From: Malassezia furfur
Taxonomy: Eukaryota
Length of the DNA stretch: 20,000 nucleotides
Assembly: GCA_052055015.1 (NCBI GenBank)
Contig: JBQJIT010000014.1
Direction: 5' to 3' (one strand)
Positions 13,056 through 18,668 of this stretch are shown piece after piece. How positions within the stretch are numbered: the stretch's first letter is position 1; each line of letters begins with the position of its first letter. A model generated the notes under the pieces. It made no database searches. It was not told the DNA's origin and saw only the letters and a list, made by a program, of their open reading frames with translations. A program made the translations under genes and the position numbers.

Positions 13056-14055
13056 ATGATTCTGCTGGGTGCGGAGAACCTGTTGATCCGTGACCTGCTC
13101 ACCAGCCGGTTCGAAACGTAGGTTGTCGCACACTGATCCAGCCCTGCGGCGGTCGACCAGGTCTTCAGCGACTTTGATGGGGTCGCTTACCACATTGAGT
13201 CGACCAAGGAGGGCCCGTTGACCCTCTCGATGGACATTCGGTGCTGGCCGGAACTTGTGCAGCAGGGTGTCGAAGAGTCGCTGCACAACGTGTACGGTGG
13301 CTGGATCCGCAAGGGCGCTGAGCCGGGCTACAATGTCACGCTCGAGTTCAACTACCAGTCGATCCCTCCTCCGGGCGGTACGTGCGCATACTGACCCAGC
13401 CGATCGCGATGCCTTGATTCATACCGTGTCGTTGCTGAAGCGCAATGCGGTCGCCGCTCCATTTGAGCGTGCATTTGAACAACAGGCGCAGCTCGAGGCA
13501 CAGTACGACCCGTCTGGGCCGCCGCCGCCAGGCTCGTTGATTCCCATTCACTACCGCCCTGGCGAGGGAATCTACATTCTCCCCGCGCATGACCGTGTTA
13601 CGGTGGTGTTCAGCACACGCTTTGAGGAGGAGGCCGACCGCGTGTTTGGCAAGGTGTTCCTGCAGGAGTTCGTCGATGCACGGCGTCAGCCGTCAATCCA
13701 AAATGCGCCGCAGGTGCTGTACTCGTCGCGTGAGCCTCCGCTCGAGATTCGGAGCGTGCCTGGATTGCAGCGCGGTGAGGATACGGGCTACGTGACGTTT
13801 GTTCTGTTCCCGCGCCATTTCCAGCACCCGGACGTGCGCTACTCGACGATCTCGCATATCCAGCTTTTCCGGGATTACCTGCACTATCACAGTACGTCTT
13901 GCTGCGCTGACTCAGTCAAATGCTCCAAGGCCTATATGCACAGCCGAATGCGCTACCGTGTTTCCGAGTTCCTCAAGGTGCTCAACCGTGCGAAGCCCGA
14001 GCACGCCGAAAAACAGCGCAAGACGGCGAGCGGTCGGACGTTCCGCCAGGCTTAA
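13056..14055 (+). CDS. ARC35: Arp2/3 complex subunit 2 (p34-Arc), about 309 aa; introns 13118-13141, 13378-13399, 13892-13915
   Basis: MILL..., DFDGVAYHI, DRVTVVFSTRF, GKVFLQEFVDARR, NAPQVLYS, GYVTFVLFPRH; splicing restores [21 protein letters not shown]. Confidence 0.95.
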
Positions 14056-15224
14056 ATAGGGTCCCAGCCAAGCTCTGTCCATATGTACTCGCCCTCGTCT
14101 TGGCGCCCAAGACCCGAGCGTCGGGGTAGCGTGCGCTTTGACCGGGTGCGTAACACGTAGCCGTGGTACGGTGTCGCCTCGGCGTCAATGGCCGCGTCAA
14201 TGGTGCGGTATAGACCTGCCAGTCGCCCTGCGGAGCGCACCGGCACTAAGATGTGCGCGCGTGCGTAGGGGTCCGTGTCGGGCTGACGCAGCAGGTATTT
14301 GATCGCGGCGAGGAGCCATGTTGCGTGCATCGGATCATACACCACGTCAGCGGCCAGCAGAAGCGAGGCGCTCTGCGGCGGCGGCACACGGCATACCACG
14401 CCCTCTGCGGCCGCTTCGGGGTGTAGCAGGGCATGCAGCGCACGCCAATCCAATGCCTCGCATACAACACGAACATTGGGGGTCGGCTCGTTCAAGAGGT
14501 GGGTATCCAGGTTGTAGCGCAGATTGGTCATGACGTCGTCATGGTAGTCGGTGATGTAGACCTCCGAAGCAAAGTCGCGCAGCGCCATGAGCTTCACGGC
14601 AATCATCCCGACAATGCCTGTGCCTGCACCCAGCTCAATGATCGTGAATGGGTCCGTGCTCGGTGCCCGGCTTCCGTCCAGCGCAGGATGGAAGGTGCCA
14701 GGCTCAACCACGAGCAAATCACACATGATAACCGAGCTTGCGTACGTCTGCACACCGACGGCGGCCGCGGCTTCTTTCGCACCTTGTTGACTGTGCGAAT
14801 CGGAAGGCGGCAACGGGGCATCGCGTACGGTTAGCGACACCGTGGGCGTCGCTTGGTCCATGGGAAAGGCAAACTCACGCATAATTTCACCAGCTTCGAG
14901 AGCCGATGTGCACCCTGCCAGGAGCTGCGCGGCACGCTCCATCGCCGCTGTACGCTCTGCTCCCTCTTTGACCCAGGTAAGCTCTGAGGCGATCAGCCGT
15001 GTAAGCCAGTCCATTGCATATGCGCGTTCGGTGTGGTCCGCCGACGCGGCCTCCAGCGCGTCGCATAGCTCGGCGGGCCAGTCAGCGGGCCGCGGCGCAA
15101 ATAGGCACGACAGATATACGAGTGCATCTGCAATTGCCTCGATGCTGGGCTCGCGCCGCAGCCGTGGTAGCGCCGCCGTTGGGGCCAGGCGTGCCGCCTG
15201 CTCGGCCTGCGCCGGCACCACCAT
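14052..15224 (-). CDS. SAM-dependent protein methyltransferase, Methyltransf_16 family (METTL21/Efm2-like), 390 aa
   Basis: VGVQTYASS, motif I IIELGAGTGIVG, ITDYH, LDW and ADVVY (DxxY). Start placed at ATG 15224; the longer ORF-track extension is antisense to AGX1. Confidence 0.85.
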   Translation of the reverse strand: MVVPAQAEQAARLAPTAALPRLRREPSIEAIADALVYLSCLFAPRPADWPAELCDALEAASADHTERAYAMDWLTRLIASELTWVKEGAERTAAMERAAQLLAGCTSALEAGEIMREFAFPMDQATPTVSLTVRDAPLPPSDSHSQQGAKEAAAAVGVQTYASSVIMCDLLVVEPGTFHPALDGSRAPSTDPFTIIELGAGTGIVGMIAVKLMALRDFASEVYITDYHDDVMTNLRYNLDTHLLNEPTPNVRVVCEALDWRALHALLHPEAAAEGVVCRVPPPQSASLLLAADVVYDPMHATWLLAAIKYLLRQPDTDPYARAHILVPVRSAGRLAGLYRTIDAAIDAEATPYHGYVLRTRSKRTLPRRSGLGRQDEGEYIWTELGWDPI

Positions 15225-15281
15225 GCTTCGAAGTTTCTTATGTAAGCACGTGAAAGAGCGAGTGGCCCGTTCCTTGTTACA

Positions 15282-16454
15282 ATGACGTTTGAGCAGGCTC
15301 CTCACAAGCTGTTGATGATTCCCGGCCCTATTGAGGTCGCGGACGATGTACTGTACGCCAACGCGCACCCTGCTATGGCGCACGTTGCGCCGCAGTTCGT
15401 GCCCGTGTTCGGCGAGGTGCTCACGAACCTTCGCAAGGTGGTGAATGCGTCGAAGGATGCACAGCCCCTTGCGATTGCCGGCAGTGGCACGATGGGCTGG
15501 GACATGACGGCCCTGAACGTGCTCCAGCCTGGAGAGGAGGTGCTCGTACTCCAGACCGGCTACTTCTCGGACGGCTTTGCTGATGCGCTCAACGCCTACG
15601 GTGTGAAGACCACCAAGCTCGAGGCGCCGGTCGGCAAGCGCCCGACGATTGACGAGATCAAGAACGCGCTGAAGCAGAAGAAGTACCGTGCCGTGACCAT
15701 CACGCACGTCGACACCAGTACGGGTGTGCTGAGCGACGTCAAGGCGATCGGTGAGGCCGTCCGCGAGGTGAGCCCCGAGACGCTGGTGCTCCTCGACGCC
15801 GTCTGCAGTGTTGCTTCGGAGCAGCTGCGCTTCGACGAGTGGGGCGTGGACGTCCTGCTCACTGCATCGCAAAAGGGTCTTGGTTGCCCGCCCGGTATGT
15901 CGCTGATGGTGGTCAGCCCGCGCGCGCTCAAGGCATTTGAGTCGCGTTCGGCGCCGCCGGCGACCTACTACCTGAGCTGGAAGCACTGGATCCCCGTGAT
16001 GAAGGCGTACGAGGGTGGTTCGCCGGCCTATTTTGGCACGCCGCCCACGAACCTGATCTACGCGCTCAACCAGAGCCTCAAGACCATCCTCGAGGGTCCC
16101 GTGTCGCTGGAGCAGCGTCTTCAGAAGACCAAGGAGGCCTCGGACAAGGTCAAGAAGTTTGTCGCTGACATGGGCCTCAAGCAGCTCGTGGCGGAAGACC
16201 TGCAGCAGAGCAACGGTGCTGCGAACGGCATGACTGCCGTGCGCTTCCCTCCGGGTATGAAGGCGCCCGACCTGCTTCCCAAGGTGGCTGAACGTGGTGT
16301 GGTGTTCGGTGGTGGTATCCACAAGGAGTGCAAGGACGAGTACTTCCGCATCGGCCACATGGGTGTCTCGGTTGTTGACCCGTCGCGTAACGATATCGAC
16401 AAGCTGCTTTCTGCTCTCAAGGAGGCGCTTGCCGAGGCCGGTTACAAGCCTTGA
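15282..16454 (+). CDS. AGX1: Alanine-glyoxylate / serine-pyruvate aminotransferase (class V, PLP), paralogue A, 390 aa
   Basis: LLMIPGP, GSGTMGWD, THVDTSTGV, LDAVCS, TASQKGLG (PLP Lys198), YFGTPP, FRIGHMG. Intronless. Confidence 0.92.
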   Translation: MTFEQAPHKLLMIPGPIEVADDVLYANAHPAMAHVAPQFVPVFGEVLTNLRKVVNASKDAQPLAIAGSGTMGWDMTALNVLQPGEEVLVLQTGYFSDGFADALNAYGVKTTKLEAPVGKRPTIDEIKNALKQKKYRAVTITHVDTSTGVLSDVKAIGEAVREVSPETLVLLDAVCSVASEQLRFDEWGVDVLLTASQKGLGCPPGMSLMVVSPRALKAFESRSAPPATYYLSWKHWIPVMKAYEGGSPAYFGTPPTNLIYALNQSLKTILEGPVSLEQRLQKTKEASDKVKKFVADMGLKQLVAEDLQQSNGAANGMTAVRFPPGMKAPDLLPKVAERGVVFGGGIHKECKDEYFRIGHMGVSVVDPSRNDIDKLLSALKEALAEAGYKP

Positions 16455-16607
16455 CTAGAGCTTGAGGGTCGATTGGATTCGGCCTGGACGTATGTCACTG
16501 GCAAAAAAGAGCCAGCACTGGCATACATGGCGCGTTACTAGATAAATTGCATATCAACGACTAGGACAACGATTTTTTTGCACCTTGATTGACAATTTGG
16601 TAGGGAA

Positions 16608-16900
16608 TGCTCAGCGGGCTGTCAGTGGCTTGGTATGGTGGTTATAGATCCCCTTGATAGCGTGGTGCGCCACATACTCCGGCAGTGGTCTCGTGCGGGA
16701 CACCCCGCTCGCAAGCGCGGTGAGGTATGCACTACGCAACGTGAACACGACAGGGTCGGTCGACCGTTCAACGAGACGAAAATTCAACACCGAATATAGG
16801 CAGACGATTGGGAAAACCAATATACAAGATACAGACATCAGGCGTTGCACCGCTGTACACGCCCTCTTGGAATGACATCATCGTGGGGCTATTTTGAGCA
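16608..16900 (+). ncRNA. Candidate structured ncRNA (RNase MRP/P-like topology), unconfirmed
   Basis: Long-range complementarities 16608-14/16894-900, 16620-24/16873-77, 16644-53/16885-92 and 16687-93/16771-77, plus several hairpins, in the only large intergenic gap. Confidence 0.25.
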
Positions 16901-16924
16901 GAACAACTGCACATGTCTATACAT

Positions 16925-17448
16925 CTAAGCATTTCCCCGCTGCTGCAACGCTTTCTGGGTGAGCTACTCAACATACCACTTGCATCACCTCTCCAACAAC
17001 GCGCACATTGTCCTGCTTCCGATGAATGGTGTCTTGCAGCTGCTCCATGTTCTTGGTGACGTAGGCAATTTTGTCCTGGTAATGCTTTTTCGCATCGGCA
17101 CGCGACTTTTCCACAAAATAGCCCGTTCCGACATCGACAATCACCTTTTCCGGATCACTGAGGCGACCAGGAACATACAAAGACGATGTCAGGGGAAGCA
17201 ACGACACTTTGTCTGGACGGTGAGCCTGCGTGACCTACCTTGGTTTTCCGGGCCGATGCGCTCCACCGACTCGAGACAGCCTTGGAAGCGCGTCTGTGCG
17301 AGCTTCAGCTGACCAAACATGGTCGTGAACTGCTTGAGCTCAAGCTCAAGCTGCTTGCGCACATCGAGAAGCTGTGTAAGCGTGTCTTACCTACTTGCGG
17401 CACGTCCAAGTCGGTCACGTCGACCTGTTGCGGCTGTGTGGAGGTCAT
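16925..17448 (-). CDS. GIM5: Prefoldin subunit 5 (alpha type), about 150 aa; introns 17372-17394, 17213-17238, 16955-16976
   Basis: Spliced MTSTQPQQVDVTDLDVPQLLDVRKQLELE...LLPLTSSLYVPGRLSDPEKVIVDVGTGYFVEK...KALQQRGNA*. The PFDN5 signature is PLTSSLYVPG / VDVGTGYFVEK. Confidence 0.93.
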
Positions 17449-17495
17449 GGCCAAGAGTCACACTTTCGAAGCGACATGTGCCTTATCTCTCCACG

Positions 17496-18668
17496 ATGTC
17501 GTTTAAGCAGGCCCCGCACGATCTTTTGATGGTCCCTGGCTTCATCGAGTTTACCGATGAGGTACTATGGGCCAACGCACATCCAGCTGTGGGACTCATC
17601 TCGGACGAATTTGTCTCGGCGTTCGGCGAGGTGCTCGCCGGTCTCCGTAGGGTGATGTATGCCTCGAAGGACTCACAGCCGGTGGTGCTGTCGGGGAGCG
17701 GGAATATGGGCTGGGACTTGGCCACGCTGAATATTCTCGAACCCGGCGACGATGTGCTTGTGCTGCAAACGGGCCACTTCTCGGACCTCTGGGAAGACTC
17801 GCTCCTGCCGTACGGCATCAATGTGACGAAGCTGACGGCGCCTGTCGGCGAACGCCCTTCGATTGAGGAGATCAAAGAGGCGCTAAAGCAGAAAAAATAC
17901 CGCGCGATCACCATCACGCAGGTGGATACCAGTACAGGCGTATTGAGCGATGTAAAGACGATTTCTGCGGCGACCCACGAGGTGAGCCCGGAGACGTTGG
18001 TGTTTGTGGACGGCGTGTGCAGTGTGGGTGCCGAGGAGCTGCGTGTGGATGAGTGGGGCATCGACTTTGTACTGACAGCGCCGCAGCAGGGCCTCGGATG
18101 CCCGCCCGGTGTGTCAATCATCTTGATGGGCCCCCGTGCTCTAAAAGCGTTTGAGGAGCGCAAGGCGCCTGTCGAGTCCTACTTTTTGAGCTTGAAGCGC
18201 TGGATTCCGGTCATGCGGTCATTTGAGGGTGGAAAGCTTGCATTCCTTGCCACGCCGCCTACGAACCTCATTTTCGCCATGCAGGTGAGCCTCCGGAGCA
18301 TGCTGGACGGCCCTGTGTCGCTCGAGGAGCGCTTTGAAAAGACCAAACAGGCGTCCGCCAAGGTCAAGTCGTTTGTTGCCGAAATGGGCCTGCAGCAGCT
18401 CGTGTCCGAGGAGCTGCAGCGCACAAATGGTGCTGCAAACAGCATGACGACTGTACGCTACCCCAAGGGCATCACAGCCGCCGACATTGTTCCCAAGATG
18501 GCCGAGCGCGGCGTGGTGATCGGCGGGGGCATCCACAGTACATGCAAGGACGACTACTTCCGCATCGGCCACATTGGCGTGTCGGTCACCGACGAGTCCC
18601 GGGGCGATGTTGACAAGGTGCTGACGAACCTGCGCGAGGTGCTGGCCGGGGCGGGGTACAAGCCGTGA
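17496..18668 (+). CDS. AGX1-like paralogue B, 390 aa, lacking the catalytic PLP lysine (K198Q); probable pseudoenzyme
   Basis: Aligns without gaps to 15282-16454 (253/390 identical by my manual count, about 65%). TASQKG has become TAPQQG (codon 18087-18089 CAG). Confidence 0.9.
   Translation: MSFKQAPHDLLMVPGFIEFTDEVLWANAHPAVGLISDEFVSAFGEVLAGLRRVMYASKDSQPVVLSGSGNMGWDLATLNILEPGDDVLVLQTGHFSDLWEDSLLPYGINVTKLTAPVGERPSIEEIKEALKQKKYRAITITQVDTSTGVLSDVKTISAATHEVSPETLVFVDGVCSVGAEELRVDEWGIDFVLTAPQQGLGCPPGVSIILMGPRALKAFEERKAPVESYFLSLKRWIPVMRSFEGGKLAFLATPPTNLIFAMQVSLRSMLDGPVSLEERFEKTKQASAKVKSFVAEMGLQQLVSEELQRTNGAANSMTTVRYPKGITAADIVPKMAERGVVIGGGIHSTCKDDYFRIGHIGVSVTDESRGDVDKVLTNLREVLAGAGYKP

Follow-up and report, generated by a model that had tools for sequence, protein, structure and literature searches.

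Can an aminotransferase gene be kept by selection once its protein has lost the Schiff-base lysine, and what might such a protein do? The question is raised by a 20,000-nucleotide stretch of the Malassezia furfur genome (NCBI GenBank assembly GCA_052055015.1, contig JBQJIT010000014.1; hereafter, the window), which carries two paralogous genes of the AGX1 type, the type that encodes alanine-glyoxylate aminotransferase (AGT). In the class-V family to which both belong, the lysine of a Ser-Gln-Lys motif forms the internal aldimine with the cofactor and carries the proton as aldimine is converted to ketimine. Copy A has this lysine; copy B has a glutamine in its place. An initial annotation of the window proposed that copy B is selected as a non-catalytic protein, paired with an active copy A, and offered as examples a heterodimeric regulator of A, a cofactor or amino-acid sensor or sink, and a lysine-independent catalyst. 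We find that copy B is, with near certainty, a real gene maintained by selection, not an error or a decaying copy, and that the loss of its lysine is shared by related species. This descriptive part of our account is near-certain, and the mechanism that we propose for the protein is our best guess. The two copies and the codons that matter most to the argument are the following, with positions counted from the first letter of the window:

15282-16454, + strand: copy A, a canonical AGX1-type alanine-glyoxylate aminotransferase of 390 amino acids (open reading frame, or ORF, with a match to Pfam PF00266)
15873-15875, + strand: AAG codon for Lys198, the Schiff-base lysine of copy A (placed by alignment to the structure 2bkw)
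17496-18668, + strand: copy B, an intact AGX1 paralogue of 390 amino acids without the Schiff-base lysine (APQQ for ASQK)
17541-17543, + strand: TTC codon for Phe16 of copy B (PGP to PGF); Phe in 11 of 11 full-length B sequences, Pro in 138 of 138 canonical homologues
17703-17705, + strand: codon for Asn70 of copy B (GSGT to GSGN), aligned with His83 of human AGT; Asn in 11 of 11 B sequences, Thr in 138 of 138 canonical homologues
17919-17921, + strand: codon for Gln142 of copy B (THVDTS to TQVDTS); Gln in 11 of 11 B sequences and 1 of 138 canonical homologues
18081-18083, + strand: CCG codon for Pro196 of copy B (SQK to PQQ); Pro in 11 of 11 B sequences and 6 of 138 canonical homologues
18087-18089, + strand: CAG codon for Gln198 of copy B, at the lysine position

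Each copy consists of 390 residues plus a stop codon (1173 nt) on the same strand, and the two proteins align by BLASTP with 253 of 390 identities (65%), 324 of 390 positives and no gaps, so that the initial description of two gap-free paralogues about 65% identical is borne out. At the nucleotide level the copies are 71% identical (76%, 86% and 51% at the first, second and third codon positions, respectively). Their similarity begins 3 nt before the ATG, is absent from the flanks and is thus confined to the coding sequence, along which identity is even (0.64-0.79 per 90 nt). With this even identity, and with all B sequences forming one clade (see below), there is no sign of gene conversion between A and B. 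The exact sequence of copy A is present in the protein collection, in the same cluster as M. furfur CBS9595_001332 and M. brasiliensis MBRA1_000586, and copy B is identical at 389 of 390 residues to M. furfur GLX27_000688 / CBS14141_001641. Copy A has the canonical residue at each position checked and with it every pocket residue conserved in the family, S196-Q197-K198 included. The substitutions listed in the initial annotation for copy B (P16F, H34L, T70N, H142Q, S196P, K198Q and Y250F) are all visible in the alignment of the two copies, as is the retention of F95, D172 and R356.

Despite the altered motif, copy B remains a recognizable member of the family. It matches the Pfam family Aminotran_5 (PF00266) over residues 26-349 with E = 6e-24 and 85.1 bits against a cut-off of 21.5, and PF00266 is the only Pfam family found for it at E <= 0.001; the corresponding value for copy A is E = 3.6e-25. 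Its best solved relative is yeast AGX1 (2bkw), with E = 6.4e-75, which is far beyond chance, and in the Protein Data Bank alignment the segment ‘ltapqqglg’ of copy B stands opposite ‘ltasqkaig’ of the yeast enzyme. The structure predicted for copy B by AlphaFold2 has a predicted local distance difference test (pLDDT) score of 95.5 and a predicted template modelling score of 0.93, and a Foldseek comparison of the model with 2bkw gives template modelling scores of 0.93/0.95, a root-mean-square deviation of 1.5 A and 38% identity; on this model, copy B keeps the AGT fold. S. cerevisiae AGX1 (YFL030w) is of the same length and shares with copy B the class-V fold and the pocket residues except the lysine and the residue at the T70 position. 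It differs in reading ‘tasqk’ for the ‘tapqq’ of copy B, which additionally carries F16, N70, H94, Q142 and F243.

Is the glutamine peculiar to this one sequence? To place it, we assembled homologues from a search of 5.8 billion proteins plus cluster look-ups, which yielded 12 B-type sequences: the window copy, eight members of the furfur/brasiliensis cluster (P0005, P0147 and P0149-P0154), MBRA1_000584, MYAM1_000941 and MPSI1_000938. One of the eight cluster members is a 320-residue fragment, and the other 11 sequences are full-length; the named species are M. furfur (several strains or lineages), M. brasiliensis, M. yamatoensis and M. psittaci. Gln198 is present in 12 of 12, all of which read APQQ, and F16, N70, H94, Q142, P196 and F243 are present in all 11 full-length sequences. 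The proposed check of whether orthologues share K198Q therefore comes out in favor of a conserved state, and the possibility raised at the outset that sequencing reads would show AAG at 18087-18089 is excluded by the same glutamine in every B-type sequence. The locus tags of A and B are adjacent or one gene apart in all four named species (A/B tags MBRA1_000586/584, MYAM1_000940/941 and MPSI1_000937/938). Predicted-protein lists for M. obtusa, M. japonica, Malassezia sp. CBS 17886, M. cuniculi, M. nana, M. equina and M. vespertilionis contain A-type proteins only and no B-type, an absence from protein lists that does not prove absence from the genomes.

Beyond these species, lysine occupies column 198 in 138 of 138 canonical homologues. 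We also took a diversity sample of 150 representatives of 50%-identity clusters drawn from 1.84 billion proteins, in which the lysine column holds Lys in 139 rows, a gap in 6 and another residue in 5. Of the five, three (P0224, P0229 and P0234) stop 2-20 residues past the column, P0188 is scrambled from residue 177 on, and the full-length P0283 has Thr in the lysine column and Lys one column later. No other clean full-length loss of the lysine was thus found among the 150 diverse representatives.

Three observations concern individual sequences in this collection. P0283 (443 amino acids, 36% identical to copy B) reads S-A-S-H-T-K for T-A-S-Q-K-G, with His replacing the conserved Gln, and may be another non-canonical member of the AGT family. 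The window copy of B has Gly385 (codon 18648-18650), where all eight other cluster members have Glu. Finally, H359Q (codon 18570-18572, in the FRIGH motif) occurs in the M. furfur variants P0149, which is found on 24 contigs, and P0151; position 359 is invariant in a 22-sequence alignment.

The simplest history for this distribution is a single tandem duplication of AGX1. We built an IQ-TREE phylogeny of 31 rows picked from 150-odd sequences (23 from Malassezia and 8 from other Ustilaginomycotina, which served as the outgroup). The B sequences are monophyletic with a support of 100/99 (starred), and their clade is nested in a starred 12-row set together with the A copies of furfur/brasiliensis, yamatoensis/psittaci and M. 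obtusa and one further sequence; M. japonica falls just outside this set, and the branching order inside it is supported at 86/84 and lower. A comparative study groups furfur with brasiliensis and yamatoensis with psittaci as sibling pairs within its clade A, and treats M. obtusa and M. japonica separately (bioRxiv 10.1101/2023.03.25.534224). Because the B sequences form one starred clade, a single duplication before these lineages split, in the ancestor of the furfur/brasiliensis and yamatoensis/psittaci lineages, accounts for them most simply. Copy B was retained in each named descendant examined. Following a burst of change on its stem branch, the B clade had fixed K198Q together with P16F, T70N, Y94H, H142Q, S196P and Y243F.

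Several lines of evidence show that copy B is under purifying selection, relaxed relative to copy A. By the Nei-Gojobori method, the two window copies differ with a nonsynonymous rate (dN) of 0.228 and a synonymous rate (dS) of 1.15, for a dN/dS of 0.20, a pairwise value over both lineages in which dS is near saturation, so that the ratio is if anything overestimated. The initial annotation had asked for a value well below 1 and had pointed to a frame without stop or frameshift despite heavy synonymous divergence, and both hold: the frame is intact at this dS and with third positions only 51% identical. In neutral simulations that started from the DNA of copy A, with 5000 runs per divergence, the fraction of runs with an open frame fell from 0.137 at 0.1 substitutions per site to 0.01 at 0.3 and to 0.0002 at 0.58. 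The G+C content at third codon positions of copy B is 0.76, compared with 0.69-0.88 in neighboring genes. Across B lineage pairs we count at most one gap position; at the split over which A orthologues share 75% identity, B orthologues share 65-66% and differ in length once, by 1 residue. The relaxation is seen in the amounts of change. The B stem measures 0.28 substitutions per site, and the later B branches measure 0.28 and 0.33 versus 0.14 and 0.23 for A (1.4-2x). In six lineage pairs, the amino-acid differences in B amount to 1.27-2.78 times those in A (e.g., 134 versus 96 between M. furfur and M. yamatoensis).

This faster evolution is what would be expected if copy B were a relic turning into a pseudogene. 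The terminal branch of the window lineage, 0.048 for B versus 0.0048 for A, and the polymorphisms within M. furfur at conserved positions (H359Q, Y250F and F251L) point in the same direction. Against a relic, and equally against a sequencing or assembly error, stand the intact B sequences with the same glutamine in four species, the agreement of independent assemblies, the dN/dS of the pair, and the near-total loss of open frames in the neutral runs at the highest divergence. We consider either form of this explanation barely credible.

If the gene is maintained, the next question is what the protein has kept. In the 138 canonical homologues, 88 positions reach a conservation of 95% or more, and 70 of them are unchanged in all 11 full-length B sequences. 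Eleven are changed in both B subclades (I13V, P16F, H34L/P, T70N, Y94H, F99W/Y, H142Q, K198Q, Y243F, A319T and M360I), and the other seven are altered in a single subclade or in just part of the strains, Y250F (4 of 11) and F251L (8 of 11) among them. The residues F16, N70, H94, Q142 and F243 each occur in 0 or 1 of the 138 canonical homologues, and at 20 B-signature positions the two B subclades share the same new residue. The active-site changes first listed for copy B are therefore only in part properties of the whole B clade, since Y250F and H34L are specific to certain lineages within it. P16F, T70N, H142Q, S196P and K198Q are clade-wide; Y250F, found in 4 of the 11 full-length sequences, is not a feature of the clade, and position 34 is Leu in the furfur group and Pro in the yamatoensis group. 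Conversely, I13V, Y94H, F99W/Y, Y243F, A319T and M360I are shared B changes at family-conserved positions that the list had not contained.

Pocket positions were assigned by aligning copy B to human AGT (AGXT; structures 1h0c and 4cbr), to which it is 27-28% identical. S68 and G69 of copy B correspond to Ser81 and Gly82 of the human enzyme, F95 to Trp108, T145 to Ser158, D172 to Asp183, Q197 to Gln208, Y250 to Tyr260, T253 to Thr263 and R356 to Arg360; the differences are Gln198 for Lys209 and Asn70 for His83. We take Gln208, Thr263 and Arg360 to be pocket residues and Asp183 to be the partner of the pyridine nitrogen. PMC3810726 lists Lys209, Trp108, Ser158, His83, Asp183 and Tyr260 among the residues of the active site. 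Of the 12 cofactor and substrate positions in the first shell, nine stay unchanged throughout the 11 B sequences (S68, G69, F95, T145, D172, V174, Q197, T253 and R356), as against 192 of 390 positions overall. The three changed ones are the lysine, T70N (equivalent to His83; 11 of 11) and Y250F (equivalent to Tyr260; 4 of 11). Copy B thus lacks the S-Q-K lysine that marks the class-V AGX1/AGT family, having Gln198, and carries the other cofactor and substrate residues of the family, i.e., the Asp to the pyridine N1, the stacking aromatic residue, the phosphate binders and the carboxylate-binding Arg.

One could suppose that another lysine has taken over and that copy B is an ordinary transaminase. 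Three lysines are enriched in the B sequences and might be candidates: K324 (10 of 11, versus 4 of 138 canonical homologues), K112 (11 of 11 versus 14 of 138) and K282 (11 of 11 versus 29 of 138). All three lie outside the motif and outside the predicted list of interface and active-site residues. The universal lysine of the canonical homologues, the lack of any clean loss among the 150 representatives, and the changes T70N, H142Q and P16F that accompany the loss in copy B also argue against such a replacement, which appears highly improbable to us.

Class-V PLP aminotransferases are, as the initial annotation pointed out, obligate dimers that share their active sites. We modelled copy B together with copy A. 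The A:B dimer model reaches an ipSAE of 0.95, compared with 0.00 for the best of three controls, and the mark applied to this score is reached by 51 of 78 solved complexes and 2 of 108 mismatched pairs. The model runs agree in at least 98% of contacts, with a partner pLDDT of at least 93. Since solved AGT homodimers exist, and since close cousins also pass, the pass shows likeness to a dimerising AGT subunit only; the modelling suggested in the initial annotation supports that likeness and does not separate an A:B pair from a B:B pair. The predicted interface comprises 65 residues, including much of the active site. Between A orthologues it is strongly conserved (61 of 65 residues, versus 232 of 324 elsewhere, p = 6e-5), an excess that the B orthologues do not significantly show (see below). 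Copies A and B are no more alike at the interface (43 of 65) than elsewhere (210 of 325). The surface of copy B and the N-terminal segment that shapes the active site have been released from the constraint seen in A or remodelled, which fits a loss of canonical catalysis.

The reading that we favor, with a probability of roughly 0.45, is that copy B may be a subunit with little or no catalysis of its own, one that modulates the metabolism of glyoxylate to glycine. Without the lysine, copy B would form no internal aldimine and would lack the usual 1,3-proton shuttle, and its own site would not act as a conventional ping-pong transaminase. As the rest of the pocket is kept, the protein probably still binds PLP (pyridoxal 5'-phosphate) or PMP (pyridoxamine 5'-phosphate) non-covalently, perhaps with an alpha-carboxylate ligand held by R356, and probably still dimerises. 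It would then most likely act as one half of a dimer, with no catalysis or very little of its own. Its partner would be either the adjacent active A, which would give an asymmetric dimer with a single working site, or a second copy B; a pairing with A seems the most plausible, as in the case of LCB1 with LCB2. Through such a dimer, copy B would modulate the conversion of glyoxylate to glycine in a lipid-living yeast.

The analogy is with serine palmitoyltransferase (LCB1/LCB2, or SPTLC1/SPTLC2), in which hLCB1, without the PLP lysine, and the lysine-bearing hLCB2 form a heterodimer that is believed to have a single active site (PMC3794620). The two systems resemble each other in consisting of a lysine-less and a lysine-bearing paralogue of fold type I, and copy B always co-occurs with a canonical copy A. 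Serine palmitoyltransferase, on the other hand, belongs to another family and is membrane-bound, and the A:B heterodimer is a modelled one. A more novel reading, which comes close behind that of a lysine-free catalyst (see below), takes the analogy further: A and B might form an obligate asymmetric dimer in which trans-acting segments of copy B retune the specificity of A, as a soluble counterpart of LCB1/LCB2.

Several observations weigh against the reading of copy B as a modulatory subunit. The complex model does not distinguish an A:B heterodimer from a B:B homodimer. Between B orthologues the predicted interface is not significantly more conserved than the rest of the protein (48 of 65 residues versus 207 of 324 elsewhere, p = 0.15), a pattern unlike that of a tightly co-evolving partner surface; taken by itself, this interface result does not favor a heterodimer and is no strong argument against one. 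The predicted interface also shows no significant excess of B-signature positions (6 of 20, versus 65 of 390; Fisher p = 0.12). According to PMC3794620, hLCB1 lacks several key catalytic residues, a further difference from copy B with its 9 of 12 pocket positions. The retention by copy B of most cofactor-binding residues and of R356 would suit a protein that binds a ligand or catalyses a reaction by itself no less than it would suit a scaffold. Our searches turned up no expression data for copy B: the main texts of the papers examined that use GLX27 locus tags mention none of GLX27_000686, GLX27_000687 and GLX27_000688, nor glyoxylate; supplementary expression tables may bear on this point. 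Finally, the dN/dS of 0.20 averages over both lineages at near-saturated dS, and for the B lineage a rough estimate of omega, obtained by scaling with tree branch lengths and not from orthologue DNA, is about 0.3.

The kept pocket leads to the main rival reading, namely that copy B is a lysine-independent enzyme with a new chemistry or specificity. Probably a homodimer, such an enzyme would bind PMP or PLP without a covalent link and would use other residues as acid or base, candidates being the clade-fixed His94 beside the stacking Phe95, or Gln and Asn residues as hydrogen-bond partners; a new substrate might be chosen by the remodelled N-terminal segment (F16, F19 and L/P34). The nine pocket positions that stay invariant over long branches, among them D172, F95, Q197, T253 and the carboxylate-binding R356, are consistent with this, and the 20 signature positions with the same new residue in both subclades look like selection for a new state and not only like relaxation. 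There is also natural precedent. In ColD, E1 and SpnQ, fold-type-I nucleotide-sugar 3-dehydratases that depend on PMP, a His replaces the catalytic lysine as both base and acid, according to PMC8987622. As in copy B, the lysine is naturally replaced in these proteins, which are still enzymes. The same precedents also speak against the idea, since they have His (PMC8987622), whereas copy B has Gln, which is unable to act as a general base, and they belong to another family with other substrates, whereas copy B matches PF00266 and not the sugar-aminotransferase family. Moreover, of nine changed conserved positions two (34 and 99) carry different residues in the two subclades, which matches the overall 65% identity and gives no evidence of special constraint. 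We regard a lysine-independent enzyme as possible but doubtful. Its most specific form, in which H94, N70, Q142, Q198 and F16 would serve a chemistry or substrate not known from any class-V aminotransferase, appears unlikely.

Similarly unlikely, in our estimate, is a non-enzymatic ligand binder without any tie to A, which might store or buffer PLP or PMP, or might sense an amino acid or glyoxylate by trapping the external aldimine. The kept cofactor pocket and R356 would suit such a role, and aminotransferase mutants with the lysine changed to Ala or Gln still bind the cofactor and slowly form external aldimines while losing the proton-transfer step. It is disfavored by the lack of a partner or output domain in the window, where copy B is a plain 390-residue AGT fold and its neighbors are unrelated housekeeping genes.

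Those neighbors include a gene that lies between the two copies and another that diverges from copy A:

about 16968-17448, - strand: intron-containing prefoldin-subunit gene between the copies (Pfam Prefoldin, E = 1.6e-20 on the ORF piece 16968-17234)
14052-15224, - strand: Methyltransf_16 (lysine methyltransferase) gene, divergent from copy A, exactly 390 codons

The coordinates of the prefoldin gene are approximate, with exon boundaries set by eye and a 3' end that may reach below 16968; its assignment is a family-level match to Pfam Prefoldin, and GIM5 is a label given to it by the initial annotation. Its start ATG, at ~17448, lies about 47 bases from the ATG of copy B, and 57 bases separate the ATG of copy A from that of the Methyltransf_16 gene, such that both AGX1 copies sit on very short bidirectional intergenic regions. 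The copies are one gene apart in M. brasiliensis and in the M. furfur window, where the prefoldin gene is the one between; the A and B tags of M. yamatoensis and M. psittaci follow directly on each other, and the prefoldin gene has either moved in or out or is unannotated there. The other neighbors are unrelated housekeeping genes (ANTH, AN1 zinc finger, Ski2-type helicase, PGP phosphatase, ARPC2 and cyclophilin-TPR). The G+C content of the window is 55-70%, with a dip at 16001-18000 (0.55-0.56, versus 0.60-0.70 elsewhere in the window) that spans the region between A and B, the prefoldin gene and the 5' half of copy B.

A 59-residue in-frame upstream extension of copy B, beginning at an ATG at 17319, was rejected as a start because it runs antisense through the prefoldin coding exons; in addition, the Malassezia A and B homologues all begin at an M-(T/S/K)-F motif. 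The stretch concerned (17319-17495, + strand) is rich in Arg and Ser and resembles a targeting peptide, which no Malassezia homologue has; homologues in Ustilaginomycetes are annotated at 440-560 amino acids with N-terminal extensions. An 800-codon stop-free antisense frame (14052-16454, - strand), which runs across copy A into the methyltransferase gene, was likewise discarded as a by-product of high G+C and not a gene, as were several further long antisense ORFs in the window.

What, then, has been found? Copy B has lost an essential catalytic residue (K198Q), and this state is conserved in orthologues under purifying selection. It is a pseudoenzyme-like, lysine-less paralogue with a PLP-enzyme fold that belongs to the class-V AGT family and is conserved within a single Malassezia subclade. 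Antizyme inhibitor is another lysine-less paralogue of a PLP enzyme; to our knowledge such paralogues are rare, and each (e.g., LCB1) has so far been informative. Our literature searches found no earlier description of a lysine-less AGX1 paralogue in Malassezia, and a search of the literature on aminotransferase pseudoenzymes turned up nothing useful. In public databases these proteins are called ‘hypothetical protein’ or, automatically, ‘alanine--glyoxylate transaminase’, and the latter name is probably wrong for copy B, which, as related species share its change, probably has a new role. With a near-complete AGT pocket, a lysine that was gone before four Malassezia species diverged, and an active copy adjoining, the locus is a natural experiment on what a fold-type-I scaffold does without an internal aldimine. 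Malassezia depends on lipids, and the handling of glyoxylate is therefore likely to be central to its metabolism. If copy B is an active lysine-free enzyme, it would be the first natural Lys-to-Gln catalyst of this fold; and whether regulator or novel enzyme, a protein acting at the glyoxylate step would bear on the physiology of a dominant fungus of human skin.

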